Shown here one piece after another: positions 21,169 to 48,920 of a stretch of DNA of 64,000 nt. Under the pieces are notes generated by a model. That model made no database searches. It saw only the letters and a program-made list of their open reading frames with translations, and had not been told where the DNA came from. Positions within the stretch are counted from its first letter, which is position 1, and each line of letters begins with the position of its first letter. A program made the position numbers and the translations under genes. The stretch comes from Pelagibacteraceae bacterium (GTDB lineage Bacteria; Pseudomonadota; Alphaproteobacteria; HIMB59; GCA-002718135): contig PBDW01000007.1 of assembly GCA_002717485.1 (NCBI GenBank), positions 1,128-65,127 on the forward strand. The letters are read 5' to 3'.

Positions 21169-21169
21169 T

Positions 21170-21706: not shown

Positions 21707-21714
21707 TTAGAAAA

Positions 21715-22353: not shown

Positions 22354-22360
22354 GAATATA

Positions 22361-22954: not shown

Positions 22955-22978
22955 AGTTATATTTTACATTATAAAAAA

Positions 22979-23698
22979 ATGAATAACAGTTTTATAAAAC
23001 TTAATTTACCAATTGATATATACGCAGATGGTCCTGAGCTAGAAGAGATAAAGAATTTTGATAATAATATTATTAAAGGATATACATTTAATCCAACACT
23101 ATTTAGAAAGCTTGAAATTATTGATTATTTATCTTTTTGTAAAAAATTAGTTAATGTGTGCGGAAAACAACCAATCTCCCTCGAGGTAATAGCAGATGAA
23201 AAAGAAGAAATTATAAGACAAGGGAAGATACTAAGTGAACTTGGCACGTCGGTATTTGTTAAAGTTCCTATAACATATACTTCAGGACTATATACCTTAG
23301 AGGCTATTGAATCATTGATGCAAAGTGGGGTTAAATTAAACATTACGGCGATTTTTACAATGGAACAGGTAAAAGAAATCCTTCCGATACTTAAAAATAC
23401 AAATTCAATAATATCATTATTTGCAGGACGTATTTTTGATATTGGCAAAGACGCTGTTAATGTTGTTGGAGAAATATCTAAATTTGTTCATAATGATTCA
23501 AATTGCAAAGTTTTATGGGCAAGTCCCCGAATGGTCTACGATGTTCATAATGCAATAAACGCTAAATGTGACATCATTACCATGCAAAGTGATTTAATAA
23601 AAAAGCTAAGTTTATTAAACAAAACCTCAGAAGAATATTCGTTAGATACAGTAAAAATGTTTTATAACGATGCTAAGAAATCGGGTTACTCTTTTTAA
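22979..23698 (+). CDS. tal: Transaldolase (small TAL/FSA fold)
   Basis: YADG, GYTFNPTL, SLEV, Schiff-base VKVP, NITA, SLFAGR, LWASPR. Confidence 0.88.
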   Translation: MNNSFIKLNLPIDIYADGPELEEIKNFDNNIIKGYTFNPTLFRKLEIIDYLSFCKKLVNVCGKQPISLEVIADEKEEIIRQGKILSELGTSVFVKVPITYTSGLYTLEAIESLMQSGVKLNITAIFTMEQVKEILPILKNTNSIISLFAGRIFDIGKDAVNVVGEISKFVHNDSNCKVLWASPRMVYDVHNAINAKCDIITMQSDLIKKLSLLNKTSEEYSLDTVKMFYNDAKKSGYSF

Positions 23699-23715
23699 AG
23701 TACTAAGTTATAAAT

Positions 23716-24570
23716 ATGCAAAAGAAAATTCCAAGCTCTAAATTTTATAATATTTTAATTAATCAAGTGCCAATAAGTAAAAATAAACATATTTATTTTA
23801 CAAAACTTTCTTTAACCGGATTAGAAGAGATGCATAATTATTCAATAAACCCCAAACTATATGAATTCTTAGGCTATAAACCTTTTAAAAATATTAACAC
23901 AACTAAAAAATATTTAAAAAAATTAATAAATAATCAGAAAAAAAACTCTAATAATGAAATTAAAGATATGGGATGGTTTATAAGAAGAAAAACTGATAAT
24001 CGATTAATTGGAACAGCAAGGCTTACGAATATAAAATATTCTGTTGGGCATGCAGAATGGGGCTGGGGCATTGACCCAGATTTGTGGGGTAGCGGCTATA
24101 TTCTTGATATTATGGAAGCATTAAAAGAGTATGTTTTTATAAAATTAACTTTAAATAGACTTTGGGGTCAAACCTGGAAAAAGAATAAACGAACTATTGC
24201 TTCTATCAAGTTAGCCGGTATGGAAATGGAAGGTGTTCATAAGGATGGAGATAAAGATGCTAATGGAAAGTATCAAGATACAGTGTCCTATGGAATAGTT
24301 GCTAAGAAATATTTTGAAGATATTAAAAAGATACATAAAAAGAAAAAATTATTAAGTCAAAATGAAATAAAAAAAATTATTCGTAAAACCTTGGGTTTAC
24401 AAATAAATTCAAAAATTAATAGTATGGAGTCAACAAGGAACTGGGATTCACTTTCTCATATCAATGTTATATTGGCAATTGAAAAAAAGATAAAATATAA
24501 GTTTAATGCAATTGAAATAGCCCAATCCAATTCTGTAGAAAATATTTATAATATTATTAATAAAAAATAA
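23716..24570 (+). CDS. RimJ/RimL-type GNAT fused to a C-terminal acyl carrier protein
   Basis: GNAT (IGTARL, EWGWGI...WGSG, LNRL, N..S, GMEMEG) followed by ACP motif WDSLSHINVILAIE. Confidence 0.82.
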   Translation: MQKKIPSSKFYNILINQVPISKNKHIYFTKLSLTGLEEMHNYSINPKLYEFLGYKPFKNINTTKKYLKKLINNQKKNSNNEIKDMGWFIRRKTDNRLIGTARLTNIKYSVGHAEWGWGIDPDLWGSGYILDIMEALKEYVFIKLTLNRLWGQTWKKNKRTIASIKLAGMEMEGVHKDGDKDANGKYQDTVSYGIVAKKYFEDIKKIHKKKKLLSQNEIKKIIRKTLGLQINSKINSMESTRNWDSLSHINVILAIEKKIKYKFNAIEIAQSNSVENIYNIINKK

Positions 24571-26153
24571 TGAATAGTTTTATCAATCTTTTGGAAGATC
24601 GATTAAAATTTTATAAAAATAGTTACGCTATTAAGAATGGCAATCAATATATGACTTATGATGAACTTTATCATAGATCAAAATTGTTACAAAATCTTTT
24701 ATCAGATAATAAATTAATTAATAATAACATTGGAATAATAACTCAAAGAAATTTTTCTGCATATATCGGAATATTGGGAACTATTTTTTCTGGATCGACT
24801 TATATTCCCATTAACTTAAAATATCCCAAAAAACGGATATCTCATATTATTGATAATGCTAAGATTAATGCATTAATTTGTGACTCAAATGACTTAAATA
24901 TACTAAAACAGAAACTTAAGGGTAATAAAAAAATTAAAATTTTGATTTTTCCTGATGATGATCAAGTTAGATTTTCAAATTATCAATTGATATTAAAAAC
25001 TGATTTAGAAAGATTTTCTAATAGAAAAATTTATAAGAAATACAAAGAGAGTAATAGCATTTATATCATGTATACATCAGGTTCAACAGGAGATCCGAAG
25101 GGCGTTGAAATAAATGACAACAATTTATTAGCATTAATGACTAATATGAATAAATTTTATAAATTTAAACCAGGATTTAAATCTTCACAAACCTTTGATT
25201 TAAGTTTTGATGTTTCAGTTGTAGATACATTTTTTCCATTATTGAATGGAGGTATTATAACAATACTTTCTGAGAAAGAATTATATTGCCCATATGATTA
25301 TATTATTAGAGAAAACATAAACCTTTGGAATTCGGTCCCAACTCTTGCAGGATTTATGAACAAATTAGGTTTTTTAAATAAAAATAGTTTTAATAAATTG
25401 AAATATAGTATTTTTGCTGGAGAACCTCTAACCAAAAAATTAGCAGATAGATGGTCTGCCGCAGCACCAAATAGCACGATAGAGAATCTATACGGCCCTA
25501 CAGAGACGACAATTTATGCCACAAGATTTAAATACAATAAAAATCATATAAGAAAAAAATTTACGAATGACATTCTCCCTATTGGCAAAACATTTTCTAA
25601 TTTGAAAGTAGCCATAGTGAATGGAAGTGATAGAATTATAGAAAATAATAAAATTGGAGAGCTAATTATAAGCGGCAATCAAGTTTCAAAGGGTTATTAT
25701 AAAAATAATACATTAACAGGCAAAATTTTTAAAAAAGTACATTGGGATGGGAAAAAAAATTATTGGTATCATACTGGCGATTTAGTTATAAAAAATAGTG
25801 ATGGAAATTTAGAATTTGTAGGTCGCAACGATGAGCAAATCAAAATAGCTGGAAAAAGAGTTGAAATAGGAGAAATCGAATCAGTTTTACGAAATCATTT
25901 TCATGACAACATTGCCGTAATAACTGCAGTAAAAGATGCTAACCTTCTAACTAAACATTTAAATTGCTTTGTAACGACTAAACTTAACAAGAATAAAATA
26001 GAAAAAATAAAAAATAATTTAAAAAAAGAACTAGATTCAGTTTTTATACCAAAAAATTTTTTCTATTTAGATAAATTGCCTCTAACAACAAGCGGAAAAA
26101 TTAATAAAAAAGCACTTCAAGACTCAAAAGTATATCAAAAAAATAATTTTTAA
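24570..26153 (+). CDS. Stand-alone amino acid adenylation domain (DltA-like)
   Basis: YTSGSTGDPKG, SFDVS, AGEP, NLYGPTE, YHTGD, GRND.QIKI.GKRVEIGEIE, PLTTSGK. Confidence 0.9.
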   Translation: MNSFINLLEDRLKFYKNSYAIKNGNQYMTYDELYHRSKLLQNLLSDNKLINNNIGIITQRNFSAYIGILGTIFSGSTYIPINLKYPKKRISHIIDNAKINALICDSNDLNILKQKLKGNKKIKILIFPDDDQVRFSNYQLILKTDLERFSNRKIYKKYKESNSIYIMYTSGSTGDPKGVEINDNNLLALMTNMNKFYKFKPGFKSSQTFDLSFDVSVVDTFFPLLNGGIITILSEKELYCPYDYIIRENINLWNSVPTLAGFMNKLGFLNKNSFNKLKYSIFAGEPLTKKLADRWSAAAPNSTIENLYGPTETTIYATRFKYNKNHIRKKFTNDILPIGKTFSNLKVAIVNGSDRIIENNKIGELIISGNQVSKGYYKNNTLTGKIFKKVHWDGKKNYWYHTGDLVIKNSDGNLEFVGRNDEQIKIAGKRVEIGEIESVLRNHFHDNIAVITAVKDANLLTKHLNCFVTTKLNKNKIEKIKNNLKKELDSVFIPKNFFYLDKLPLTTSGKINKKALQDSKVYQKNNF

Positions 26154-28020: not shown

Positions 28021-28725
28021 ATGAAAATTATATCTGAAATACATCCGCAACATAAAGGCAACATTGATATCGCTTCTGAAATGATAAGGGAGTCAGCTTT
28101 AAATGGAGCAGATATTGTTAAGTTTCAATGGTATGATGATGGTTATAAGGTTTTAGGTAAAGATTATTCTGATCTGGAGTTAAGCTATGATGATTGCAAA
28201 CATCTTGTTAAAATATCTGAACATTATGGTGTGGAACCCTTATTTAGCATATTTGATGAAGGCGCATTTGAGGGCAACTGTAAACTCGGCCTAAAGAAGA
28301 TTAAAATTGCAAGTAGGACTGTTAAACAATATCCAGATTTATGTAAAAAAATTATTGACTATGCTGACGAAGTTTATGTCTCTTTAGGTATGTGGGATAA
28401 AAAAGAATTTCCTTTCGGAACAGATTCAAAAATCCATTATTTTTTTTGCATATCAAAATATCCAACATACAATTATGATCTAAAAGATTTTCCCAAACAA
28501 TATGTCATTGGAAATATCGAAGGTTACAGCGACCACACTTTAGGCATAGATGCATGCCTTTTGGCAGCTTCAAGAGGAGCAATGTTTATTGAAAAACATT
28601 TTTCATTAGATAAAACAAATCAACAAGATAAACAGTTGGCGCATGTTTGCAGTATGAATCCCCAAGAGCTAAGCGTTCTTTCAACTTTCGGCAAAAGATT
28701 ATTTAAACTAAATAAAGATACTTAA
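28021..28725 (+). CDS. Short NeuB-family synthase without SAF domain
   Basis: ISEIHPQH.G, VKFQ, KIAS, CISKYP, GYSDHT.G, IEKHF; 234 aa. Confidence 0.85.
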   Translation: MKIISEIHPQHKGNIDIASEMIRESALNGADIVKFQWYDDGYKVLGKDYSDLELSYDDCKHLVKISEHYGVEPLFSIFDEGAFEGNCKLGLKKIKIASRTVKQYPDLCKKIIDYADEVYVSLGMWDKKEFPFGTDSKIHYFFCISKYPTYNYDLKDFPKQYVIGNIEGYSDHTLGIDACLLAASRGAMFIEKHFSLDKTNQQDKQLAHVCSMNPQELSVLSTFGKRLFKLNKDT

Positions 28726-31808: not shown

Positions 31809-32831
31809 ATGAAGGAAGATTTTGACTGGGATTTCGCAGATAAATTAGATTATAAAATAAGGCCTATTATTGACTTCGCTAATTTAAAGGGGAATCTTTT
31901 TGCCCCTGTAAAAGAATACTTAGACTATTCAGGATGGGTAAATTTTTTGAAAAATAGAAGTTACGGAATACCAATAATGTTACCAGATAAATTGAGTATG
32001 TTTAATTATCCAGATAATAGCGTTGATTCAAAAAGTTTTGACTTAAATATTAAAGATATTTCTAAGGGTATTTTTAACACAAATCGAATTGACTATATTG
32101 GTGTTAAAATATTTGCAGAGAATGGATTAAGTTTTAAGTCATCAGGAGATCCAAAAAAAGAAATTATACCTTTTATAAATAATGTCCAAAAATTTAATAA
32201 TAATACAAAAAAGTTGATAGAAAAAATTAAATTATCAAACAAAACGATCGCTGCATTCCAATGCAGAAATGTTCCACACTTTGGACATCAGGCTATAGTT
32301 GAATCATTAATGTCGAAAGCTGATGTAGTTGTAATAAACCCAATTTTGGGCCCAAAAAAACCTGGAGATATTAAACCAGATTGCCTTAGGGCAACCTGGC
32401 AATACTTAATAAAAAATTATTATGGTGAAAAAGTAAAATTTTGGCCCGTGATTGCAAATATGTTCTATGCTGGCCCAAGAGAAGCTGCACATCACGCAAT
32501 AATTAGATCAAATCTGGGTTTTAACTATTTTAGTGTTGGTAGAGATCATGCTGGAGCTGAAAATATATATCAAGATGAAGAAGCTTCAATTTTTGTTATA
32601 AATCATGAAAGAAAGTTTAATATTAAAATAATTGCTAATCGGGGGGCGTATTTTTGTAGTTCTTGCAAAAAGGCTGTAATACGAGGGGCTTGTCCTCATA
32701 AAGAAGAAGGTTTAGAAGATATCTCAGGTTCAGATTTTAGAAAACACATTGAAAATAAAAAAATATATAAATTTGCAGATAAAAACTTGCAAGAATTTGT
32801 ATTTGAAATGAAAGGATCAATCTTTGAATAA
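31809..32831 (+). CDS. sat: Sulfate adenylyltransferase (ATP sulfurylase) with a divergent N-terminus
   Basis: AFQCRNVPHFGH, KKPGD, YAGPREA..HA..R.N.G, VGRDHAG, CxxC..CPH, ISGS. Confidence 0.88.
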   Translation: MKEDFDWDFADKLDYKIRPIIDFANLKGNLFAPVKEYLDYSGWVNFLKNRSYGIPIMLPDKLSMFNYPDNSVDSKSFDLNIKDISKGIFNTNRIDYIGVKIFAENGLSFKSSGDPKKEIIPFINNVQKFNNNTKKLIEKIKLSNKTIAAFQCRNVPHFGHQAIVESLMSKADVVVINPILGPKKPGDIKPDCLRATWQYLIKNYYGEKVKFWPVIANMFYAGPREAAHHAIIRSNLGFNYFSVGRDHAGAENIYQDEEASIFVINHERKFNIKIIANRGAYFCSSCKKAVIRGACPHKEEGLEDISGSDFRKHIENKKIYKFADKNLQEFVFEMKGSIFE

Positions 32832-34221
32832 CAATTTAATTTCACCAGTCATTGCTACAATTGGACCCGCAACCGAGGAAAGAAAAAATTTAGTAACTTT
32901 ACTTAAGCTATGCGATATCGTCAGGATAAACGGAGGTCACAATACTTTATCTTGGCACAAAAATGTGTCTAGTAATGTTAAAAAAATAGATTCAACTAAG
33001 GTGATATTAATTGATGTTCCCGGAATCAAACCTAGAACATTGAATAAAAAACCTATTATAATTAAAAAGGGAGAAAAAATTATTTTTTGCGGAAAGGAAA
33101 AAAAATTATCTAAATCAAATTATAAAATTGTTAAGTTATCAAATCCTCTGCCAAAAAATTATAAAAAAAATAAACATTTTTCAATTTCCGACGGTCAATT
33201 TTCCTTCTCTTTAATTAAATATGGTAAAAACTATGTTATAGGTAAGTCTAAAGTTAATTTTATATTATTACCCAACAAAGGATTAAATATTCCCGGATCT
33301 TTTTATGACGAAAATTATCAACTTAAAGTTTATAAAAATTTTCTTAAAAAGATAAATAATTTTAAATTTGATGCATTAGGAATAAGCTATGTGCAATCGG
33401 AAAAAATCATTAATAAAATAAGAAAAATATTTCCAAGTAAAATCATAGTTTCAAAGATTGAAAACTCCCTAGGATTGCATAATTCCTTAGAGATCATAAA
33501 ATCATCTGATGCAATTATGATAGATAGAGGAGACTTGGCTGCTGAAGCTGGTGAGCAAAACTTATTTAACGATGTAGTTCGTGTATCAAAACAAGTTAAG
33601 TACTTAGGTAGGCCATTAATAATAGCAACAGAGAATTTAGAATCTATGATAGAAAAAGTAGCTCCGACTAAAAGCGAAATTATGTCACTAGGATTAAATA
33701 CCTTATTAGGTGCAGATAAAATAATGTTGAGTGACGAAACTGCAACCTCTACAAATTGGAAAAATACAATTAATTGGGTTAACAAGTTTTATAATTTCAC
33801 AAATATTGATAGTTCTACTATGAAAAATTCATTTACCAGAACAGGTATAGATGAGAATCATAGCAACTTATGCATTTGGGACGCAATTGAAACCTTAAAT
33901 CATCTACCTTTTGTTATTGCTACTAAATCTGGGGCTGCAATATATGAATTAAAAAAAAGAATAAACGGCAACAGAATATTCGTTTTTACAGATAGTATTA
34001 GAACTTACAATTTGTGTCGATTTTGGAACGGAATAACTGCTAATATTGTGCAAAAAATGTTAAAAAAAGAAGGTGGCAAACAAATTTTAGGTATTGTTAA
34101 GCAACACTCTAATTTATTGTTTACCAGCAATTCAGCAATAGCAACTGTATTTGTTCTGAACCCAAGAAAAGGTGCAAGGGCAAATGCACTATACATTGTG
34201 ACAAAAAAAGATTTAAAATAA
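32824..34221 (+). CDS. Pyruvate kinase-like protein with altered active-site motifs
   Basis: ATIGPAT, RINGGH, D.PG.K.R, SKIEN, IMIDRGDL, ATENLESM, PTKSE, MLSDETA; TTG start overlapping sat. Confidence 0.85.
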   Translation: MNNNLISPVIATIGPATEERKNLVTLLKLCDIVRINGGHNTLSWHKNVSSNVKKIDSTKVILIDVPGIKPRTLNKKPIIIKKGEKIIFCGKEKKLSKSNYKIVKLSNPLPKNYKKNKHFSISDGQFSFSLIKYGKNYVIGKSKVNFILLPNKGLNIPGSFYDENYQLKVYKNFLKKINNFKFDALGISYVQSEKIINKIRKIFPSKIIVSKIENSLGLHNSLEIIKSSDAIMIDRGDLAAEAGEQNLFNDVVRVSKQVKYLGRPLIIATENLESMIEKVAPTKSEIMSLGLNTLLGADKIMLSDETATSTNWKNTINWVNKFYNFTNIDSSTMKNSFTRTGIDENHSNLCIWDAIETLNHLPFVIATKSGAAIYELKKRINGNRIFVFTDSIRTYNLCRFWNGITANIVQKMLKKEGGKQILGIVKQHSNLLFTSNSAIATVFVLNPRKGARANALYIVTKKDLK

Positions 34222-34240
34222 CAAATTAGAATTAAACAAT

Positions 34241-34774
34241 ATGGTAATCTGGCTTACAGGCTTATCTGGTTCAGGTAAAACGACAATAGCTAATAGTTTT
34301 TTAAAAAAAATTAAAAGCTATAAAATAAAATTTATATTGATTGATGGCGATATTATAAGGAATTTATTCTCTAAAGAATTAAGTTTTCAAAAAAAAGATA
34401 GGATAAAACAAATACAAAAAATCCAGCTCTTATCTAAATTTTTATCTGATCAAGGATTTAACGTTATTGTGGCTGCATTATATTCAAATAAAAACTTAAT
34501 GAAATGGAATAAAAAAAATTTAAAGGATTACGTCGAAGTTTATGTAAAGGCTCCATTAGAATTATTGATTAAAAGAGATACAAAAGGTTTGTATGCGGAT
34601 GTAATCAATAAAAAAATGAAACATATGGTTGGTATTGATATTAAATGGATTCCTCCAAAAAATCCACATTTAACTATAAGTCAAAAAATTGATTCAAATC
34701 CTGAAAGTTGTTCTTTAAAAATAGTAAATTTTTTAAAAACAAGAAAGAAATATAAGACTTTATTTAAAAAATAA
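34241..34774 (+). CDS. cysC: Adenylylsulfate kinase family protein
   Basis: WLTGLSGSGKT, DGD..R, EVYV, RDTKGLY, GID. Confidence 0.8.
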   Translation: MVIWLTGLSGSGKTTIANSFLKKIKSYKIKFILIDGDIIRNLFSKELSFQKKDRIKQIQKIQLLSKFLSDQGFNVIVAALYSNKNLMKWNKKNLKDYVEVYVKAPLELLIKRDTKGLYADVINKKMKHMVGIDIKWIPPKNPHLTISQKIDSNPESCSLKIVNFLKTRKKYKTLFKK

Positions 34775-34780
34775 AAATTA

Positions 34781-36031
34781 ATGAAAAAAATCCAAATTTT
34801 ATGCCTTGTGACAATTTCAAGAGCAGGATCTAAGCTGCTTCATAGCTTACTAGATTCCCATAAAAATATAATTTGTTTTCCAAGAACTTTTAATTTTTAT
34901 AATTTCTGGAATCAAAATCATCATTTAATTAATCAACCAAATCTTCTGATTGATCAATTTATTAAAGATAATAAAAGATTTTTTAATAGGGAAATTTGGG
35001 GCGAATATAATCCATTAGATAAAATGAACGATAAAAGGGAAAATTTTAATTTTTCAACTCAAAAGTTTAAAAAATTATTTTTAAATCAATTTAATAAAAA
35101 AAGAAAAATAGGTAAAAGAAAAAATTTGTTCTTAAGTTTACATCTGGCATATGCAAATCTTCTCAATAAAAATTTAAATGAAAAAAATATTATATTATAT
35201 CATTTGCACGCTATTTATGGACAGGAAGAAGCTTTAAAGCAAATTGTTAATGATTTTGATGCAAACGTTAAATTTATTATGATGACAAGAAATCCAATAG
35301 ATTCAATGAGATCAATATCTAATTGGATGGATAAAGTCTCTTTTAAAAATATATATGATATTTTTTATTATCAGAGCTGCTGTTTTGCTGATTCACAATT
35401 CTTAAAAAATTCATTTAAAAAAAATTACATTAAAGTTATAACATTTGAATCCTTGCATAAAAATTCTAAGGATGTAATGAAAGCTCTCTCTAAATGGATG
35501 GAAATCAAATGGAGCAATAATTTATTAAAAAGTACTTTTTGTGGAAAAATATGGACAGGTAATTCGCATAAAATTCTAAAAGGTTTAAATAAAAATAAAA
35601 TTAAAAAAATTAATCCTAATAATTTTTTTGAAAAAAATGATCAAATAATTTATCAATCAATATTTCCATATCGAATGAAATTATATGGTTATTACAATAA
35701 TTTATTACCACTTACATATTCAAGAATTATTTTATTTATAAGAGTATTGATACCAACAAATTCGGAAATTTCTATGCTCCAATCTTTTTTTAGTATTAAA
35801 TATTTATATTCAATATATCTGTACCATAAAAATCTTCATAAATTTAAGCATAATCATATGTTAAAAAATAGATATATGTTTAATAATATTTATTATATTT
35901 GTTTTATTTCTTATTGTGAAAATTTATTTAAGTATTTGTTTTTTTATTTAAAAAGAATAATTACATATTTTAGAGTTATAAAAAATAAAATACCTGACTA
36001 TAAAAAAGATATAGTTTTTACTATTTATTAA
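34781..36031 (+). CDS. Sulfotransferase family protein
   Basis: 5'-PSB-like SRAGSKLLHSLLDSH, 3'-PB-like RNPIDSMRS, ITFESL. Confidence 0.75.
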   Translation: MKKIQILCLVTISRAGSKLLHSLLDSHKNIICFPRTFNFYNFWNQNHHLINQPNLLIDQFIKDNKRFFNREIWGEYNPLDKMNDKRENFNFSTQKFKKLFLNQFNKKRKIGKRKNLFLSLHLAYANLLNKNLNEKNIILYHLHAIYGQEEALKQIVNDFDANVKFIMMTRNPIDSMRSISNWMDKVSFKNIYDIFYYQSCCFADSQFLKNSFKKNYIKVITFESLHKNSKDVMKALSKWMEIKWSNNLLKSTFCGKIWTGNSHKILKGLNKNKIKKINPNNFFEKNDQIIYQSIFPYRMKLYGYYNNLLPLTYSRIILFIRVLIPTNSEISMLQSFFSIKYLYSIYLYHKNLHKFKHNHMLKNRYMFNNIYYICFISYCENLFKYLFFYLKRIITYFRVIKNKIPDYKKDIVFTIY

Positions 36032-38824: not shown

Positions 38825-40180
38825 ATGAGTAATCCTTTAGTTTCGATAATCATACGTACTAAAAATGAAGAGAGATGGATTACGTCTTGTTTAAAATCAA
38901 TTTTTAACCAGACTTTTCAAGATTTTGAGATCATAATTGTTGATAATGAAAGTTCCGATAAAACGATAGAAAAACTTAAAGAATTTAAAATAAAAGAAGT
39001 TTTAAAAATTAAAGATTATTTGCCAGGTAAGGCTTTAAATATTGGAATTAAAAAATCATCTGGAAAATATATAGTCTGCTTATCGGCTCACTGCATACCA
39101 GTTAATAATAAATGGTTGTCAACTTTAATTAAATCCATTGAAGAAGATAATAATTATGCTGGAGTTTACGGTAGGCAAGAACCAATGACATTTTCTACTC
39201 TCTACGACAAGAGAGATATGATGTTAATTTTTGGACTTGATAGAAAAATACAAATTAAAGATAGTTTTTTTCATAATGCAAATTCAATTATTAAAAAAAG
39301 TTTGTGGACCGAAGTTCCTTTTGACGAGAATTTAACAAATATTGAGGATCGTATTTGGGCAAAAATGATGCTAAAAAAAGGTTATAAGTTATTGTATGAA
39401 CCCGATGCAAGAGTTTATCATTATCACGGTATCCATCAGAATAATAATGATGAAAGATTAAAAAATGTAGTTGATATTATAGAAACTCATCATCCGGAAA
39501 ACATTAGCGGTAAAATTAATGCTGAAAATCTTAATATTATTGCAATATTACCTATTAAGGGACTTGCTAAAATGATTAATGGAGAGCCTTTATTAAAATA
39601 TACTATTGAAAATGCAAAAAATTCAAAATTTATTGATAAGGTTATTGTATCTACTGACAATGAAGATACAGCAAAGATAGCGCAGCAATTTGGCGCTCAT
39701 TGCCCATTTCTTAGACCTAAGAGTTTATCAGAACCCTTTGTTAGTTTAGAGATTGTTCAAAAATATTCACTGGAAAGAATAGAGGAAAATAACTTTATCC
39801 CAGATCTAATAGTACACTTAGAGGAAACATTTCCATTTAGACCAAAAAACCTCTTAGATAATATGATAACAAAGCTTCTCATTGAAGGATATGACTCAAT
39901 AGTTGCTGCAAAAAGAGAATCTGGTTGGTTATGGCAAAATGATAAAGAAGGAAATTTTAGAAGATTAGATAGCGGGGACGTGCCAAGAGAATTTAAAGAA
40001 AATTCACTGATTGGACTCCATGGCTTAGGTTGCGTTACTCATCCAGAATGCATTAGATCAGGACAAATACTAGGTAGTAAAATTGGTCTTTATAGAGTTG
40101 AAGATCCTATGGTAGATTTTGAAGTGAGAAGCGATGAATCTATAAAAATCGCCTCAAAATTTCTAAAAAATGAAATTTAA
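38825..40180 (+). CDS. GT2 glycosyltransferase fused to a degenerate NeuA-like domain
   Basis: SIIIRTKNEE, VDNES.D, LSAH, YGRQ, IED; C-term VSTD, FLRPKSL, TFPFR but no PARxGSK..KN motif. Confidence 0.82.
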   Translation: MSNPLVSIIIRTKNEERWITSCLKSIFNQTFQDFEIIIVDNESSDKTIEKLKEFKIKEVLKIKDYLPGKALNIGIKKSSGKYIVCLSAHCIPVNNKWLSTLIKSIEEDNNYAGVYGRQEPMTFSTLYDKRDMMLIFGLDRKIQIKDSFFHNANSIIKKSLWTEVPFDENLTNIEDRIWAKMMLKKGYKLLYEPDARVYHYHGIHQNNNDERLKNVVDIIETHHPENISGKINAENLNIIAILPIKGLAKMINGEPLLKYTIENAKNSKFIDKVIVSTDNEDTAKIAQQFGAHCPFLRPKSLSEPFVSLEIVQKYSLERIEENNFIPDLIVHLEETFPFRPKNLLDNMITKLLIEGYDSIVAAKRESGWLWQNDKEGNFRRLDSGDVPREFKENSLIGLHGLGCVTHPECIRSGQILGSKIGLYRVEDPMVDFEVRSDESIKIASKFLKNEI

Positions 40181-42931: not shown

Positions 42932-42997
42932 ATTATCCTTATTGGTATATTTAGTTTATACTAATGATTCGGTATAACAATTTTGTAATAATTTAGA

Positions 42998-43870
42998 ATG
43001 TCTTACAAGAGAAAAGAAAAAATAATTACTGTTGGATATGGTAATGTAAATAAAGTGACTGTTGGAGGCTTAAATCCTTTAATTTTTATAGGCGGCCCTT
43101 GCGCCATTGAAAGCCAAGAACATTCTATTAAGATGGCTGAGTTAATTGGAAAGATCTGTGAGAAAGTTGGCATTTCATGGATATACAAATCATGTTACGA
43201 TAAAGATTGCAGATCATCACCAGAAAGTTTTCATGGACTTGGAATAGAGGGAGGACTAAAAATCTTGGAAAAGGTGCGTAATGAAATTGGCGTACCAGTC
43301 GTTTCAGATTTTTCTGATCCTGCGTGGGCTGAAAAGACAGGAGAAATTTGCGATATGGTTCAAATTCCTGCTTATCTCTGTAGACAAACTTCTATTTTAC
43401 GATCAGCAGCTAAAACTAATCGTCCAATACATTTAAAAAAAGGACAGTTTATGAGTCCTTGGAATATGAAAAATTCTGTACAGAAGATAGAATCTAATGG
43501 AAATTCACAAATTATTTTATCTGATAGGGGCACTTTTTTTGGATACAATATGCTTGTAAATGATATGAGGTGTTTTCCGATAATGGCTGAAACAGGATAT
43601 CCAGTATGCTTTGATGCAACTCACTCAATTCAACTTCCAACATCAATGGGTAATATATCAGGCGGGCAAAGAGAATTCATACCATATCTTGTTAGATCTG
43701 CAGTTGCATGTGGAGTTAACGCTTTATTTATGGAAGTGCATGATGACCCGGATAATGCTTTATCAGACTCAAATACAGTATTGCATATTGATATGCTTCA
43801 GAATATTTTATACCAAGCTAAAGAAATGCATGAAATGAGATTAGAATTGTCAAAGAAATATGAGGAATAG
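42998..43870 (+). CDS. kdsA: KdsA paralog (KDO8P synthase family, metal-dependent type) with a variant substrate loop
   Basis: GGPCAIES, QIPAYLCRQT, KKGQF, RG..FGYN.LV.D, FDATHS.Q.P, FMEVH..P..A.SD; KANRS is replaced by KDCRS. Confidence 0.82.
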   Translation: MSYKRKEKIITVGYGNVNKVTVGGLNPLIFIGGPCAIESQEHSIKMAELIGKICEKVGISWIYKSCYDKDCRSSPESFHGLGIEGGLKILEKVRNEIGVPVVSDFSDPAWAEKTGEICDMVQIPAYLCRQTSILRSAAKTNRPIHLKKGQFMSPWNMKNSVQKIESNGNSQIILSDRGTFFGYNMLVNDMRCFPIMAETGYPVCFDATHSIQLPTSMGNISGGQREFIPYLVRSAVACGVNALFMEVHDDPDNALSDSNTVLHIDMLQNILYQAKEMHEMRLELSKKYEE

Positions 43871-43876
43871 TTATTA

Positions 43877-44293
43877 ATGAATGCAAATGAAATTAGTGTA
43901 AAAGACGTTATGCTTACTACTGAAAATTTCCCTGTAATTAATAAAAATACTTTATTTAAGGAATCACTTGAACATATGAATAAAACAAATTTGGGAATTG
44001 CTTGCGTTGTTGATGAAAGAAATAAATTATTAGGTATTATAACGGACGGTGACGTTCGTCGTAATCTTTTAAAAGTTCAAAAACCCATATCAGCTTTTTT
44101 TGTAGACGATGTGGTTTCTCACTGTGTTAAAAATCCAATTACAATACTACCTGATGATAAACTTAATTATGCAGTAAAAATTATGGGGGAAAAGAAGGTT
44201 TGGGACTTACCTGTAGTTAATAATGATGGAATTTTGGTTGGTCTGCTTCATCTTCATCAAGCTATTAAGAAATTACTAGAAAAAGATATATAA
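43877..44293 (+). CDS. Stand-alone CBS-pair protein resembling the KdsD C-terminus
   Basis: VKDVM, LG...VVD, GIITDGDVRR, LPVV, GLLHLH. Confidence 0.85.
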   Translation: MNANEISVKDVMLTTENFPVINKNTLFKESLEHMNKTNLGIACVVDERNKLLGIITDGDVRRNLLKVQKPISAFFVDDVVSHCVKNPITILPDDKLNYAVKIMGEKKVWDLPVVNNDGILVGLLHLHQAIKKLLEKDI

Positions 44294-44297
44294 AATT

Positions 44298-45077
44298 ATG
44301 AACTATCAAAAACGTTTAGAACTTAAAAATAAACTTAGAAATCGAGAAAGATTGTTTGCAGCCTGGGTATCGTATTCCGAAACTTCAATTACGGAAACTT
44401 TTAGTAATGCTGATTTTGATTTTATAGCTATTGATATGGAACATTCAACAATTTCATTTGAGCAGGCAAAACATATCATTGCTGCTAGTCAGGGCAATGG
44501 AATACCCTGCTTGCCTAGACCGGTCTCTCATTCAAATGATGTTTTTAAACCGCTACTCGATAGCGGATCAGATGGTTTTTTGATATCAACAGTAGATACA
44601 TCTGAACACGTTAGAAACATTATTAATATATTAAAATATCCACCTACAGGTAAAAGAACTTATGGTTTAAACAGAGCCCAGGATTATGGTTTTGGCTCAG
44701 AGCAATATTTTAAAAAATGGAACGAAACTTCATCAATTATAATTCAAGTCGAAAGCAAGGAATCTGTTAAAAATATAAATGATCTTTTAGGTTTTGATGA
44801 AGTTGATGGTGTAATGATAGGCCCTTATGATTTGTCAGGATCTCTTGGAGTTTCAGGTCAAACAGATCATCATTTAGTCATTGAAGCATCAAAAAAAGTT
44901 ATTAATGCATGTAAAAAATATGGAAAAAGTTGTGGAACACAAATTGCTGATGTAACTGATAGCAAAGTTAATGAAACCTTTGACCTTGGTTATAACTTTG
45001 CGATTTTAAGTTCTGATTTATTCATACTTTGGAAGTGGACAGAAAATATTAACAAAATAATTAAATCAAAACGTTGA
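44298..45077 (+). CDS. HpcH/HpaI class II pyruvate aldolase
   Basis: DFIAIDMEHS, LDSG, YPP.G.R, QVES, IGPYDLS.SLG. Confidence 0.9.
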   Translation: MNYQKRLELKNKLRNRERLFAAWVSYSETSITETFSNADFDFIAIDMEHSTISFEQAKHIIAASQGNGIPCLPRPVSHSNDVFKPLLDSGSDGFLISTVDTSEHVRNIINILKYPPTGKRTYGLNRAQDYGFGSEQYFKKWNETSSIIIQVESKESVKNINDLLGFDEVDGVMIGPYDLSGSLGVSGQTDHHLVIEASKKVINACKKYGKSCGTQIADVTDSKVNETFDLGYNFAILSSDLFILWKWTENINKIIKSKR

Positions 45078-45859
45078 GTAATTATATAAATAAAATCTTT
45101 AATTTAGAAAATAAAGTTGCAGTTGTTATAGGTGGAGGCGGGCATCTGTGTGGAGAGATGGCTCAGTCATTAGCAAAGGCTAAATGCAATGTTGCTATAC
45201 TAGATATAAATTTAAAAAAGGCAAAAAAGGTAAAGAAATCAATAGATGATCTAAAGTATAAAATAAAAACTGCCGCTATAGAAATTGATGTTACAAAAAA
45301 ATCTAGTCATATAAGGGCATACAAAAAAGTATTAAAATATTTTAAACATATTGATATTTTAATAAATGGTGCAGGCATAAATTCTCCTGAACCTTTTTTT
45401 GATATTACTGAAAAAGGTTGGAAATCTGTTATAGATTCTCAGGTGACAGGTACTTTTTTTGCATGTCAAATATTTGGAAAATATATGGTTAAAAGAGGTA
45501 AGGGTTCTATAATTAACATTTCTTCTGCTTCTGCAAATCCTCCTTTGTCTAAAGCTTTTGCATATTCAGTATCTAAGTCAGGTATTAAGAATCTTACCCA
45601 GAATCTAGCACGTGAATGGGGAACTAAAGGTGTCAGGGTTAATGCTTTAAGACCAGGATTCTTTCCAACAGAATGGAATAAAAAAAATTTCATAACAAAA
45701 CAAAGGGAAAAAGCTATTATTAAACATACTCCAATGTCTAGATTTGGAAAGCCTTCCGAGCTTACAGGAGCGGTATTATGGTTAAGCTCAGATTCATCTA
45801 GTTTTGTAACAGGTTCAGAAATTTTTGTTGACGGCGGTTTCTCAGCAATGACAATATAA
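45074..45859 (+). CDS. SDR (mannonate/gluconate oxidoreductase-like)
   Basis: GGGGHL, NGAG, YSVSK, PGFF, HTPM.RFG, VDGGF; TTGA overlap start. Confidence 0.88.
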   Translation: MSNYINKIFNLENKVAVVIGGGGHLCGEMAQSLAKAKCNVAILDINLKKAKKVKKSIDDLKYKIKTAAIEIDVTKKSSHIRAYKKVLKYFKHIDILINGAGINSPEPFFDITEKGWKSVIDSQVTGTFFACQIFGKYMVKRGKGSIINISSASANPPLSKAFAYSVSKSGIKNLTQNLAREWGTKGVRVNALRPGFFPTEWNKKNFITKQREKAIIKHTPMSRFGKPSELTGAVLWLSSDSSSFVTGSEIFVDGGFSAMTI

Positions 45860-45878
45860 ACAAAAGGATTATAATAAT

Positions 45879-46625
45879 ATGAAATCAATTGTTATAACAG
45901 GAGGAAGCAAGGGGATAGGATTGTCAATAACTAAAGCATTTTTAAATGCAGGCTATTATGTGGTTATTGGCTCTAGAAATGGAATTGAAATTAATGATGA
46001 AATTAAAAATAATTTTTCTTCCATTAAAATGGATGCATCTAATGTTTATGGTCATGAAATTCTTGTTAATGAAGCAATAAAAAAGACAGGACAATTAGAT
46101 GCGTATATTAATAATGCAGGATTTTCGGAATGGAGACCAATAAATAAAATTGATAATAATTTTTTAGATAATATATTTAAAGTTAATCTTTATTCAGCTT
46201 TCTGGGGATGCCAAGTAGCCTCTAAAAATTTTGGAAATAATGGAGGTGTTATAATTAATATATCAAGTATTGCTGGAAAAAGAGGCTCGACTAATAATTC
46301 AGCTTATAGCGCAACAAAATTTGGCATGAATGCATTGACTCAATCTTTGGCAAAAGAGCTTGGTAATAAAAAAATTAGAATTAATTCATTATGTCCAGTG
46401 TTGATTGATACAGAAGGATTGAATGAAGCGCTTAAAAGTGAATATTCTCCTGCCGCAGGAGATTCAAAAGAATTTTTTTCAAATTTTATAAAAAACCAAT
46501 CGGCTCTTAATAGACTGCCGTCATCTAAAGAAGTAGCTGATATGTGTGTATTTCTGGCATCTGATTCTGCAACAGCAGTTACAGGACAGTGTATAAATGT
46601 AGATTGTGGTGTATTTCCTCAGTGA
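45879..46625 (+). CDS. SDR (sorbitol-6-phosphate/polyol dehydrogenase-like)
   Basis: TGGSKGIG, NNAG, ISSIAGKRG, NSAYSATKFG, TGQCINV. Confidence 0.88.
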   Translation: MKSIVITGGSKGIGLSITKAFLNAGYYVVIGSRNGIEINDEIKNNFSSIKMDASNVYGHEILVNEAIKKTGQLDAYINNAGFSEWRPINKIDNNFLDNIFKVNLYSAFWGCQVASKNFGNNGGVIINISSIAGKRGSTNNSAYSATKFGMNALTQSLAKELGNKKIRINSLCPVLIDTEGLNEALKSEYSPAAGDSKEFFSNFIKNQSALNRLPSSKEVADMCVFLASDSATAVTGQCINVDCGVFPQ

Positions 46626-47392
46626 GAATAGTAGGAGTTATTCCAGCACATCTTGCATCAGTCAGGTTTCCAAATAAGATTTTGTTAGATATTCTCGGTA
46701 TTCCGATGATAGAACATGTTCGTAGAAGGGCTCTTTTATGTAATTTATTTGATGAGGTATACGTAACAACTTGTGATAGAAAAATTTCAGAAGTTGTAAA
46801 AAAGTATGGGGGCAGAATAATAAAGTCATCAAATAAACACTCTAACGGAACTAGTAGAGTCGCTCAAGCAATTGAAAAAATTTCTTGCTCTCACGTAGTA
46901 ATATTGCAAGGTGATGAACCTCTTATAGATCCAGAAAATATTGAAACATTAATTAATTCAATTAAAAAAAATAAGAATTTTAGCTCATGGAATTTAACAG
47001 GTCCGATTAAAAATAGAAAAGAATTAAATAAAGAATCTTTCGTTAAATGTAAGGTAGCTAGAAATAACAACATAAAATTACTTTTTCGAAAAAAAAAATT
47101 ATTTAAAAATCAATTACAGTCTGAAGATAACATTAGAAAAATATTAGGAGTTATAGCATTTAAAAAATCCTTTCTTAAAAAAATTGTGAGGATGCCAGTC
47201 ACACTTAATGAAAAAAAATATTTAATAGAGCAGAGTAGGATTGTTGAAAATAATTTTAAGTTAAAATCTGTTCCAATAAAGGTAAGTTTACCTTCTATAA
47301 ACGAACCTGGAGATGAAAAAATTGTTTTAAAAGTTTTGAAGAATAATAAAAAACAGAATAAACTTTATAAAAAAACATTAAAAAACATATAA
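46622..47392 (+). CDS. kdsB: KdsB-like CMP-ulosonate synthetase
   Basis: VIPAHLASVRFPNK, H.NGTSR, QGDEP, VK, IEQ.R. Start placed at the GTGA overlap at 46622. Confidence 0.82.
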   Translation: MRIVGVIPAHLASVRFPNKILLDILGIPMIEHVRRRALLCNLFDEVYVTTCDRKISEVVKKYGGRIIKSSNKHSNGTSRVAQAIEKISCSHVVILQGDEPLIDPENIETLINSIKKNKNFSSWNLTGPIKNRKELNKESFVKCKVARNNNIKLLFRKKKLFKNQLQSEDNIRKILGVIAFKKSFLKKIVRMPVTLNEKKYLIEQSRIVENNFKLKSVPIKVSLPSINEPGDEKIVLKVLKNNKKQNKLYKKTLKNI

Positions 47393-47402
47393 TTATTAAA
47401 TT

Positions 47403-48920
47403 TTGAACGAATACCAATATAATAAAATTTGCAACGTAAGCGACAAATTGCTGTTATCAAGAGATTCATCCGTTAATAGAATTTCTATTCCCTTTTTGCA
47501 TATTGTTAGCGAACATCCTGAAGATTTAAAGGATTATAAACCTCTGTTTAAAAAATCTAAAAGTTCAAAAATTATAAGAATTACAGTTAATTTAAAAAAC
47601 AAAATTCAATATTTAAAATCTTTTTTAAAATTATTTTTTTGTTTTTTTCATAAGCAAGATTATTGGAAGATAAATTTTAAAAATATAAAAAATCCAATTA
47701 ACATTATTCTAATATCACATTTTATAAATATTAAGCAAACTCAAGAAAATGATGATTTGTATTTTGATAATATTCCAAAAATTATGAATCAAAACAATAA
47801 AAAATGTATTTTAATACTAATAAATCATACGAAAATTAAACCTCAAGTAATAGTAAAAAATTGGAAAAAAAATGGGACTCCAATACTAATACTTTCAAAA
47901 TCTCTTAATTTTTCTAATGAATTACAAATAATTTATAGATGTATTTCGGAAATATCTCGGTTAAAAAAATTAGGTAAGATAAGTTTTAAGAATTTTGATA
48001 AAGAATTTATTAATCTCACAACTAATAAAATATTAAATGAAACTACTATGCTTTCTTTAAGACTAAACTTACAATTAAAGAAAATTGTTAAAGAATACCA
48101 ACCAAAAACTATAGTCACTACATTTGAAGGTAACGCATGGGAAAGAGTTGCATTTTATTCTGCAAGAACTGCAATACCTTCAATAAAATGTATAGGATAC
48201 CAACATTCTAGAATATTTAAATTACAACATTCTTTTAAAAGAAAATTACGTCCTATCTACAATCCAGATTATATAATAACTGCAGGTTTTACTGGCCAAA
48301 AGATATTAAAAAAATTCTATAATAAAAAAAATATTATTTGCGTTGGCAGTCACAGATTAAAACAATTTAACTCTAAAAAATTAAGTAAAAAATTAATTAA
48401 TAAAAAATCTGTTTTAAGGTGTTGTGTTTTACCCGAAGGTTATATTACTGAAGCATTTAAACTTTTTAATTTTTCACTTAAATGTGCAATAATGTATCCT
48501 GAAATTGAATTTGTTTGGAGGTTGCATCCTCATATAGAATTTAAAGATATATTTAACAAATATAACATTTTTAAAAAACTACCTAAAAATATTATTATTT
48601 CAAATAAAAGCTTTGATTATGATTTAAAAAGATGTGATTGGACATTATATAGAGGAACAACTGCAGTAATTCAATCGGTATTATATGGATTAAGACCCAT
48701 TTATTTTAAAATAAACGGAGAATTACCCATTGATACATTATTTGAAATAAAAAAATGGAAGGTAGAAGTAATTAAACCGGAAGAGATTTCAAAGATTATT
48801 AATCATAAACAATTACAAAATAAAAAATTAAATAGTTGCAAGAAAAGTGCTCAAAATTATTGTAAAAGTTATTTTAAAAATTTTAATTTAATTAACTTCA
48901 AAAAAATAATTAATTCTTAA
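47403..48920 (+). CDS. Hypothetical GT-B fold protein, candidate ulosonate transferase
   Basis: GYQHS, VGS.R, LPEG, WRLHP, YRGTTA; follows the kdsB-like gene. Confidence 0.55.
   Translation: MNEYQYNKICNVSDKLLLSRDSSVNRISIPFLHIVSEHPEDLKDYKPLFKKSKSSKIIRITVNLKNKIQYLKSFLKLFFCFFHKQDYWKINFKNIKNPINIILISHFINIKQTQENDDLYFDNIPKIMNQNNKKCILILINHTKIKPQVIVKNWKKNGTPILILSKSLNFSNELQIIYRCISEISRLKKLGKISFKNFDKEFINLTTNKILNETTMLSLRLNLQLKKIVKEYQPKTIVTTFEGNAWERVAFYSARTAIPSIKCIGYQHSRIFKLQHSFKRKLRPIYNPDYIITAGFTGQKILKKFYNKKNIICVGSHRLKQFNSKKLSKKLINKKSVLRCCVLPEGYITEAFKLFNFSLKCAIMYPEIEFVWRLHPHIEFKDIFNKYNIFKKLPKNIIISNKSFDYDLKRCDWTLYRGTTAVIQSVLYGLRPIYFKINGELPIDTLFEIKKWKVEVIKPEEISKIINHKQLQNKKLNSCKKSAQNYCKSYFKNFNLINFKKIINS

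Follow-up and report, generated by a model that had tools for sequence, protein, structure and literature searches.

A widely shared gene cassette built around a variant KDO8P-synthase-family enzyme and predicted to make a CMP-activated ulosonic acid

The window, i.e. the whole 64-kb stretch of DNA analysed here, is a one-strand glycan island. At positions 42998-48920 of its forward strand lies a conserved unit that encodes a variant KdsA, a CBS-only protein, an HpcH-type aldolase, two short-chain dehydrogenases/reductases (SDR1 and SDR2), a KdsB-like cytidylyltransferase and a probable transferase of GT-B fold. The first six of these open reading frames lie where the first-pass annotation had placed them, and the conserved unit extends one gene beyond the end given there (47392), up to 48920. 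Our literature search found no published description of this cassette, which is widely shared and apparently undescribed so far.

The first gene (42998..43870, + strand) encodes a metal-dependent KDO8P-synthase-family enzyme of 290 aa (PF00793, 220.5 bits). Two curated KDO8P synthase models recognize it above their cut-offs (TIGR01362: 329.9 bits, cut-off 314; NF003543: 341.9 bits, cut-off 242), so the use of arabinose-5-phosphate (A5P) by this enzyme is conceivable; a third KdsA model gives 247.4 bits, under its cut-off of 457 (NF009109). DAH7P synthase models score it at 131-147 bits, as against 330-342 bits for the KDO8P synthase models. The nearest solved structures are KDO8P synthases (6mdy, E-value 3e-80), and the predicted structure is a TIM barrel (pLDDT 89.0). 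All motifs cited earlier as evidence that the PEP and metal ligands are kept were found: GPC (residues 33-35), PAY (124-126), KKGQF (147-151), DATH (206-209), EVH (246-248) and SD (256-257). Among 34 orthologs the metal ligands C35, H209, E246 and D257, the PEP ligands K64, K69, K147/K148 and R177, and the phosphate-site residues R72, S73 and R129 are invariant; the ligand positions align to C11, K41, K46, R49 and S50 of Aquifex aeolicus KDO8P synthase, which we take to be ligand residues of that enzyme. The canonical KANR(S/T) loop is replaced by K69 D70 C71 R72 S73 (43202..43216, + strand), exactly as the first-pass annotation had reported.

The KDCRS loop is common to all 120 best database matches (75-100% identity), which form one tight clade. 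In the tree, a branch with SH-aLRT support of 100 sets all 27 clade members apart, with a stem of 0.48 compared with an in-clade depth of 0.27, and clustering at 50% identity leaves the clade with one full-length representative (510 bits), the next protein scoring 297 bits. Asp70 and Cys71 are found in 121 of 121 clade members; in 73 canonical sequences, position 70 is Ala in 65 and Asp in five, while the presence of Asn71 in all 73 holds by construction, as this set was chosen by a pattern requiring Asn. A fairer motif count comes from the best 150 representatives at 50% identity, 108 of which are readable in the loop: 104 have Asn, one reads DKPGRA and three read DKDCRS, the latter being P0121 and two short entries. 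Canonical enzymes have Ser66 (73/73) and His106 (71/73), where the clade has Cys and Ser, respectively, in 121/121 members. The changes on the catalytic face that are fixed in the clade are S66C, A70D and N71C (loop L2), H106S (past strand 3), F126Y (past strand 4) and a remodelled L7 loop; in the predicted model the changed positions map to strand ends or to loops L2 and L7. In canonical enzymes, the Asn, Ser and His residues presumably contact the hydroxyl groups of A5P, as we assume from the A. aeolicus and Neisseria meningitidis enzymes. These comparisons support the view that the variant KdsA proteins form a discrete clade with a predicted rebuilt aldose pocket.

The second gene (43877..44293, + strand; 138 aa) had been described as only the CBS half of KdsD, and our domain search agrees: it detected two CBS stretches (PF00571) and no SIS isomerase domain. 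The protein matches the KpsF model, 268 positions long, only over positions 156-268 (73.9 bits, cut-off 203.7), and among solved structures it comes nearest to an arabinose-5-phosphate isomerase CBS pair (4o9k, E-value 1.4e-23). TDGDxRR and WDLP motifs are invariant in 34 orthologs. The protein is thus probably a descendant of the KdsD CBS pair, for which we propose a regulatory role from family and fold only. Of 80 genome loci, 79 have a CBS gene after the variant kdsA, and the contig of the remaining one ends 8 bases past the match; given this, and the presence of KDCRS in 120/120 best matches, the association of the KDCRS loop with the CBS gene is far above chance.

The HpcH/HpaI-family protein (44298..45077, + strand; 259 aa; PF03328, 94.9 bits, cut-off 25) is a predicted class II pyruvate aldolase. 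Enzymes of this family combine pyruvate with aldehydes to give 4-hydroxy-2-oxo acids. R74, E152 and D178, at least 97% conserved in 52 sequences, are presumably the catalytic Arg and the Glu/Asp metal ligands, by precedent of HpaI. The nearest solved structure is that of the 2-keto-3-deoxy sugar aldolase YfaU (2vws, 108 bits), and the protein scores under all equivalog cut-offs (HpaI, GarL, rhamnonate aldolase), hence it is not one of those equivalogs. SDR1 (45074..45859, + strand; 261 aa) resembles sugar-acid dehydrogenases: it comes close to the D-mannonate oxidoreductase model (259.7 bits, cut-off 281), and its nearest solved structures are gluconate 5-dehydrogenase and hexonate dehydrogenases. 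SDR2 (45879..46625, + strand; 248 aa) matches PF13561 and PF00106 and stays under every NCBIfam cut-off. Conserved in SDR1 are S151, Y164, K168 and D44, and in SDR2 S130, Y143, K147 and R33 (49 sequences); Asp44 and Arg33 each follow the second strand, and by the general cofactor rule we take them to indicate NAD and NADP, respectively.

The KdsB-like cytidylyltransferase (46622..47392, + strand; PF02348, CTP_transf_3, 119.6 bits) lies in an open reading frame that opens at 46589, with a more likely GTG start at 46622 that overlaps the SDR2 stop. It scores under the cut-offs of all five KdsB models (182.0 vs 193, 181.8 vs 255, 150.9 vs 234, 113.2 vs 281 and 112.2 vs 155.2), its nearest solved structure being the Escherichia coli capsule CMP-Kdo synthetase (1gq9, 106.9 bits). 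The PAH motif pointed out earlier in place of PAR is indeed present in the window's protein, but it is not diagnostic of the clade, as orthologs in three other loci (L003, L052 and L098) read PAR. The last gene (47403..48920, + strand; 505 aa) matched no Pfam family; homologs occur in 31 loci, mostly directly after the KdsB-like gene. In its predicted model (pLDDT 87.4), residues 96-505 align to 4xso (Z 15.1, rmsd 5.6, 327 aligned), to many GT4/GT1/GT28 chains and to WaaA (2xci; Z 12.0, rmsd 7.1, 301 aligned). The model has the two Rossmann-like domains of a GT-B fold, and the protein is a probable transferase of the activated sugar.

Among 65 loci with the KdsB-like gene, 46 carry the full cassette, 16 a minimal form without the aldolase and SDR1, which consists of the variant KdsA, the CBS protein and the KdsB-like enzyme alone, and three a partial one. 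Five minimal cassettes (L003, L008, L017, L068 and L081) nest inside the full-cassette clade of the tree of KdsB-like proteins, and the variant KdsA is alike in both forms, its best match (78%, L003) coming from a minimal cassette. The aldolase/SDR module is, judging from these data, optional and repeatedly gained or lost, which suggests that it tailors the sugar; the initial proposal that the aldolase and SDRs make the substrate of the variant KdsA is not supported by the same data. Two loci have the aldolase, both SDRs and the KdsB-like gene with no variant KdsA or CBS gene in the preceding 2.8 kb (L101) or 9 kb (L103), so the aldolase might be a second synthase rather than a tailoring enzyme; in three others (L038, L046 and L074) the variant kdsA is located several kb away. 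Methyltransferase and acyltransferase genes, variable between loci, are interspersed among the cassette genes, and HAD_2 genes adjoin the variant kdsA in L098 and L100.

Most carriers of the cassette are Gram-negative and KdsD-bearing, among them G000, G004 and G005. The window's own genome contains canonical kdsA, kdsD and kdsB elsewhere, so the variant is not its sole kdsA; our search of this 85% complete genome turned up no KdsC-type phosphatase. KdsD is likewise present in G004 and G005. Carriers G001, G006, G028, G053, G002, G574 and G576 yielded no KdsD-type isomerase; some of the KdsD-less hosts are incomplete single-cell or binned genomes. In G006 the cassette lies on a 1.22 Mb contig, and in both G006 and G028 the only SIS domains belong to one GlmS-sized open reading frame (~600 aa). 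Of 61 genomes in the family to which the Candidatus Planktophila genome belongs, four gave a KDO8P-synthase-family match; all four are of the KDCRS type with the CBS gene adjoining, and none of the four has a kpsF-family match at E-value ≤1e-20. In the genus of the Prochlorococcus-titled genome, three of 61 genomes possess a KANR(S/T) KdsA, adjoined by a full KdsD in all three, and another three possess the KDCRS variant with the CBS-only gene and no KdsD match. Two observations here are new: the cassette occurs in actinobacterial genomes in which neither a KdsD-type isomerase nor a canonical KdsA was found, and within one Prochlorococcus-titled genus canonical KdsA pairs with full KdsD, and variant KdsA with the CBS-only gene. 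Together they suggest that A5P is probably not the substrate of the variant KdsA, although KdsD-less hosts could obtain A5P via another route.

Based on this comparison, we consider it rather probable that the unit at 42998-48920 represents one copy of a cassette that spreads horizontally and specifies a CMP-activated 3-deoxy-2-ulosonic acid, related to Kdo but probably not Kdo, destined for a variable surface glycan. The discrete clade with its rebuilt pocket, the canonical set elsewhere in the genome and the KdsD-less hosts together point to an aldose phosphate different from A5P and to a CMP-ulosonate that is not Kdo, in line with the first-pass annotation. In the pathway that we propose, the variant KdsA would join PEP with an aldose phosphate drawn from central metabolism instead of KdsD-derived A5P; as neither the loop length nor the phosphate site has changed, ribose-5-phosphate or another pentose-5-phosphate is our best guess. 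The phosphate would then be removed by a HAD phosphatase such as those adjoining the cassette in some hosts, and the optional aldolase, together with SDR1 (NAD-type) and SDR2 (NADP-type), could alter stereocentres in the free 2-keto-3-deoxy acid through retro-aldol/aldol steps and through oxidation followed by reduction. The KdsB-like enzyme would add CMP, the GT-B protein would transfer the sugar, and the CBS-pair protein may sense a nucleotide or nucleotide-sugar and so regulate the pathway. More tentatively, we suggest that the variant KdsA switched to a universally available aldose phosphate, most simply ribose-5-phosphate, to yield an undescribed octulosonic acid that is an epimer of Kdo, further epimerised by the aldolase and the NAD/NADP SDR pair, on the surfaces of bacteria that rank among the most abundant in aquatic habitats, such as Prochlorococcus and the Gram-positive Actinobacteria of fresh water, which otherwise lack Kdo chemistry, with the free CBS pair acting as a detached allosteric sensor of the CMP-sugar.

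The main alternative is an ordinary second CMP-Kdo pathway resembling capsule KpsF/KpsU, in which the variant KdsA converts A5P to Kdo8P, KDCRS is neutral or regulatory via the CBS partner, and the aldolase and SDRs modify Kdo later. It would account for the KDO8P synthase model scores, the retained PEP, metal and phosphate ligands, the proximity of the KdsB-like enzyme to capsule CMP-Kdo synthetase, the KdsD/KpsF descent of the CBS protein and the KdsD genes of the window's genome, G004 and G005. We regard it as unlikely, since Ser66 and His106, invariant in canonical enzymes, and Asn71, kept in almost all readable representatives, have given way to other residues that are now fixed across phyla, several carriers yielded no KdsD-type isomerase (G006, G028, G002, G574, G576), canonical KdsA adjoins KdsD throughout the three genomes of the Prochlorococcus-titled genus that have it, and an A5P-dependent route would not be expected to lose the SIS domain yet retain the CBS pair, as 79 of 80 loci do.

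Still less probable, in our opinion, is that the variant KdsA and the aldolase are two entry enzymes, one acting on PEP and a sugar phosphate and the other on pyruvate and a free aldose, towards one acid or two, with the SDRs preparing the aldolase acceptor rather than epimerising the KdsA product. All three gene combinations do exist (16 minimal loci, 46 full ones, and L101 and L103), and both the general chemistry of the HpcH family and the relationship to YfaU fit it; however, redundant routes kept together in 46 loci at 50-67% identity are hard to explain, the nesting of minimal cassettes in full ones suggests one substrate class, and the variant KdsA of L101 and L103 may lie elsewhere in the genome, as in L038, L046 and L074. 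That the enzyme serves no glycan at all, but makes a DAH7P-like or other keto-acid precursor of a small metabolite, seems very improbable: DAH7P synthases do belong to the same family, with weaker model matches, and the sugar pocket is rebuilt, but the gene is constantly linked to a cytidylyltransferase and a GT-B protein in glycan islands, and its loop has the length of KDO8P synthases, not of the shorter motif of DAH7P synthases.

The KDO8P synthase family is an antibiotic target, and to our knowledge its KANRS motif has been treated as constant; a large cross-phylum clade that replaces it offers a natural experiment in how substrates are selected. Should the product be a new ulosonic acid, bacterial surface glycans would gain an additional building block, carried in the variable islands that influence how phages and grazers recognise marine and freshwater plankton, and caution would be due in applying a "Kdo / LPS" annotation to cassette genes of genomes that are Gram-positive or lack Kdo.

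Compared with the canonical CMP-Kdo pathway (KdsD, KdsA, KdsC, KdsB) and KpsF/KpsU, the cassette employs the same synthase and cytidylyltransferase families with like PEP, metal and phosphate ligands, a homologous CBS pair deprived of the SIS domain, and an implied phosphatase step (HAD genes in L098 and L100). It differs in the KDCRS loop, the S66C, H106S and F126Y replacements and the new L7 loop, in a KdsB-like enzyme below all canonical KdsB cut-offs, in the added aldolase, SDRs and variable methyl- and acyltransferases, and in its occurrence in hosts without that pathway. Type I-beta DAH7P synthases share the PF00793 superfamily, the metal site and TIM-barrel condensation of PEP with an aldose phosphate, whereas the variant KdsA keeps the longer five-residue loop; these enzymes set the precedent that, between KDO8P and DAH7P synthases, motif changes after the conserved Lys accompany a different aldose phosphate. 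In the 8-amino-Kdo pathway of Shewanella (KdnA/KdnB), dedicated redox enzymes remodel the free ulosonic acid, which a KdsB-type enzyme then activates with CMP. The idea of tailoring before activation is shared, but the cassette has no aminotransferase or iron alcohol dehydrogenase, and here the synthase is altered as well. NeuB-type pathways for sialic, legionaminic and pseudaminic acids also combine PEP-dependent 3-deoxy-2-ulosonic acid synthesis and PF02348 CMP activation in variable glycan islands; their synthases belong to another fold family (PF03102) and act on non-phosphorylated amino sugars, while the variant KdsA keeps the phosphate site. Two NeuB genes are present in the same window.

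The window is a single-strand glycan island of 28% G+C, in which seven closely packed genes on the + strand (42998-48920) form the cassette considered here. It begins at 42998 with KdsA*, a paralog of the KDO8P-synthase family (42998-43870; PF00793, 220.5 bits), followed by genes for a 138-aa protein that consists of nothing but two CBS domains, an HpcH/HpaI aldolase, two classical SDRs (SDR1 and SDR2), the CTP_transf_3 cytidylyltransferase KdsB*, whose likeliest start (GTG 46622) overlaps the SDR2 stop codon, and a 505-aa protein without a Pfam family, which ends at 48920. All motifs quoted for these proteins in the first-pass annotation were found, including KDCRS at 43202-43216, which corresponds to residues 69-73 of KdsA*. 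Contigs from three metatranscriptome runs, all belonging to a single study, match the window at 99% identity or more over 42985-43865, 44135-44368 and 44881-45040, i.e. KdsA*, the CBS/HpcH junction and HpcH; no cover from SDR1 onward was seen in the same contigs, which carries no weight either way. As DNA may occur in RNA libraries, these matches are a weak hint that the cassette is expressed.

KdsA* scores above two curated KDO8P-synthase cut-offs (329.9 vs 314 and 341.9 vs 242) and its closest solved relatives are KDO8P synthases, but comparison of sequences indicates that it is distinct from the other members of the family. All 120 best matches in a collection of 5.8 billion proteins (75-100% identity) read KSC(Y/F)DKDCRS. 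Among proteins clustered at 50% identity, a single full-length representative (510 bits) stands for the clade, and the next protein follows at 297 bits and 51% identity; the loop is readable in 108 of the 150 best representatives, with Asn in 104, DKDCRS in three and DKPGRA in one. In a tree built from 27 members of the KdsA* clade plus 73 canonical enzymes, the clade is separated from all other sequences by a single branch (SH-aLRT 100), and its stem measures 0.48 changes per site against an internal depth of 0.27.

The active site combines strict conservation with replacement. The residues that we take to be ligands of the metal (C35, H209, E246, D257), of PEP (K64, K69, K147, K148, R177) and of the phosphate (R72, S73, R129), matched to their A. 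aeolicus counterparts via alignment, are invariant in 34 orthologs. Comparison of 121 clade members with the 73 canonical enzymes revealed positions that are fixed in all 121: C66 (canonical S, 73/73), D70 (canonical A in 65, D in five), C71 (canonical N in 73/73, by construction of the canonical set) and S106 (canonical H, 71/73). The clade also has Y126 and S132, where 57 and 61 of the 73 canonical enzymes have F and D, respectively, and a fixed TSMGNI in the L7 loop (215-220), which is variable in canonical enzymes. In the AlphaFold model of KdsA* (pLDDT 89.0), the changed positions fall directly after strands 2, 3 and 4 or within the flexible loops L2 and L7, hence on the predicted catalytic face of the barrel. 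With the ligands invariant and these positions changed, KdsA* is predicted to retain its chemistry and its phosphate anchor but to have a rebuilt wall on the side where the hydroxyls of the sugar are recognised. The replaced residues are, on our assumption, those that contact the sugar hydroxyls. The available parts of PMC3149649 contain no list of sugar contacts, and those of PMC3052366 no A5P contacts. A complex prediction for KdsA* and the CBS protein, with alignments of 34 rows each (score 0.02, mark 0.32), speaks neither for nor against binding.

Whether KdsA* uses arabinose-5-phosphate (A5P), the product of the isomerase KdsD, can be approached through its hosts. The first-pass annotation asked for confirmation of a canonical kdsA/kdsD/kdsB set elsewhere in the genome, and we located it: kdsA lies 98 kb downstream (408.6 bits), KdsD is full (297 bits) and kdsB is probable, so the case of a sole kdsA, named there as telling against a different aldose, does not apply. 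KdsC was not found in this genome, which is 85% complete, a point against the pathway proposed below. Hosts in which the canonical pathway is missing are more informative. In the actinobacterial family of a Ca. Planktophila record, four of the 61 genomes have a KDO8PS-family match, and all four are of the KDCRS type with an adjoining CBS gene (two full cassettes, one minimal cassette, i.e. without HpcH and SDR1, and locus L072, which stops inside the CBS gene). None of these four genomes gave a kpsF-family match at E<=1e-20, some of the hosts without KdsD being incomplete genomes. In G006, one of the four genomes, the cassette is on a 1.22 Mb contig and adjoins topA-like and holB-like genes; G006 and G028 have no SIS domains other than the pair within a single GlmS-sized ORF of ~600 aa. 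HAD_2 phosphatase genes adjoin KdsA* in two actinobacterial loci, in agreement with a phosphorylated product of the predicted synthase. In the genus of a genome titled Prochlorococcus, 55 of the 61 sampled genomes have neither canonical KdsA nor KdsA*, three have a KANR(S/T) KdsA, each adjoining a full KdsD, and three have KDCRS-type KdsA* with the CBS protein only and no KdsD match. By gene content, where Kdo genes are carried in an island, the isomerase accompanies the canonical synthase but not KdsA*. The canonical-KdsA islands are L197, L198 and L199 (in G595, G602 and G582), and a KdsB-like gene is nearby in L197 and L198.

A pattern scan with one genome per species returned 151 relatives of KdsA*. 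By record title, the best 80 of the 151 (68-78% identical) come from Alpha-, Beta-, Gamma- and Deltaproteobacteria, Legionella and Pelagibacteraceae, as well as from Bacteroidota, Nitrospirae, Leptospira, SAR324, Prochlorococcus and an actinobacterium. Cultured carriers include Aquirufa sp. 1-SAACH-A3, Devosia sp. UYZn731 and Anianabacter salinae ASV31. A CBS gene follows KdsA* in 79 of the 80 loci, and the contig of the 80th stops 8 bases past the match. Among the 82 loci that include a KdsA* ORF, 65 have a KdsB-like gene; 46 of the 65 also carry HpcH, SDR1 and SDR2, 16 lack HpcH and SDR1, and three are partial. A homolog of the 505-aa protein occurs in 31 loci, and FkbM and class I methyltransferases together with Acyl_transf_3, MBOAT and hexapeptide acyltransferases are variably interspersed among the core genes. 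Because of these counts, and because the minimal cassettes L003, L008, L017, L068 and L081 are nested in the full-cassette clade of the KdsB* tree, where at least five label changes are needed, the aldolase/SDR module appears to be optional and to have been gained or lost repeatedly. KdsA* does not vary with it, its closest match (L003) being in a minimal cassette. We therefore dropped the proposal that KdsA* receives its substrate from the aldolase and SDRs.

In the window's own family, KdsA* occurs in just five of 80 other genomes, at 65-74% identity; copies in other phyla are at least as close, and its distribution therefore fits horizontal spread of the gene as judged by these identities. 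No gene of this type was found in phage records (top match 41.5% identity), IMG/VR viral contigs (top 54% partial, at most 51% full length) or PLSDB plasmids (top 50.2%), and complete E. coli genomes contain no DNA match to the Enterobacterales-titled copy L022. In IMG/VR (L115-L194), 81 of 112 pattern matches belong to the KdsA family; their identities with KdsA* range from 32% to 54%, many of them being 36% identical across residues 29-273, and none is in the KDCRS clade by identity. A cyanophage with kdsA/kdsB appears in the available part of PMC12801897.

We also observed a recurrent ~315-aa protein between the CBS gene and HpcH (e.g. L004 11279-12232, L007 11294-12241, L011 6808-7779, L027 11281-12207 and some twelve further loci), which is not in the window's copy; it has a common N-terminal SSHW.KYH-like stretch, and none of four tested members has a Pfam match. 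In two alphaproteobacterial loci (L031 11276-13962, L043 11295-13803), the genes after KdsA* and CBS encode a radical SAM (SPASM) protein together with a ~500-aa protein that has no Pfam family, in place of the aldolase module.

The CBS profile has as its top solved match the CBS pair of arabinose-5-phosphate isomerase 4o9k (E 1.4e-23), with TDGDxRR and WDLP invariant; since KdsD CBS pairs of this type have reportedly been crystallised with CMP-Kdo, this analogy suggests that the protein is a putative nucleotide-sugar sensor. HpcH is closest to YfaU, a 2-keto-3-deoxy sugar aldolase, and retains R74, E152 and D178, and SDR1 is closest to gluconate 5-dehydrogenase and hexonate dehydrogenases. 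Asp44 is conserved in SDR1 and Arg33 in SDR2; residues of this kind set the preference of SDRs for NAD or NADP, and by this rule the two are predicted to be an NAD/NADP pair, as expected for an epimerisation by oxidation and subsequent reduction. KdsB* is under all five cut-offs of the KdsB models, and its closest relative is the E. coli capsule CMP-Kdo synthetase; its PAH motif, previously regarded as a mark of new specificity, cannot serve as one, as orthologs have either H or R. For the 505-aa protein, Pfam yielded no family, even when the search was relaxed to E 0.1 and extended to 24 homologs, and the ESM Atlas gave leads only (Glyphos_transf and Capsule_synth); in its model (pLDDT 87.4), a GT-B domain pair spans residues 96-505, with Z 15.1 against 4xso and Z 12.0 against the Kdo transferase WaaA (2xci).

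The best-supported reading is that the cassette encodes a pathway for the synthesis and CMP activation of a Kdo-like acid, in which KdsA* would take an aldose phosphate other than A5P and the optional aldolase/SDR module would act as a tailoring unit on the free 2-keto-3-deoxy acid. HpcH-SDR1-SDR2-KdsB* also occurs in two metagenome loci whose upstream sequence, 2.8 kb in one and 9 kb in the other, holds neither KdsA* nor CBS, and this leaves room for the aldolase as a second synthase. A metagenome scan with HpcH as query returned seven loci only, and an HpcH ortholog at E<=1e-60 is present in none of 400 further genomes drawn from the same phylum as the window. No description of a KDCRS-type synthase or of the cassette was found in the open-access full-text literature. 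According to the available part of PMC3355719, it was not known in 2012 in which form Dha is activated, and the sugar terms sought are all absent from the main text of PMC11898729, the supplements of which could bear on the point.

Other glycan modules are present in the window. An unusual sugar module on one strand (20107-26153) starts with NeuB (20107-21168) and includes a HAD phosphatase, a PglD-like hexapeptide acetyltransferase, a SIS_2 isomerase (22361-22954), a transaldolase/fructose-6-P-aldolase family protein (22979-23698), a GNAT protein and an AMP-binding enzyme. A short NeuB-family ORF (28021-28725; 234 aa, 97 bits) is flanked by two proteins, 610 and 614 aa long, that match nothing in Pfam. 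Two fusions (7380-8633 and 38825-40180) join GT2 glycosyltransferase and CTP_transf_3 cytidylyltransferase domains, and PF02348 has seven matches above cut-off in the genome. The island also holds a sulfation set (31809-36031) with ATP sulfurylase, APS kinase, a sulfotransferase-family protein and a 465-aa pyruvate-kinase-barrel protein.
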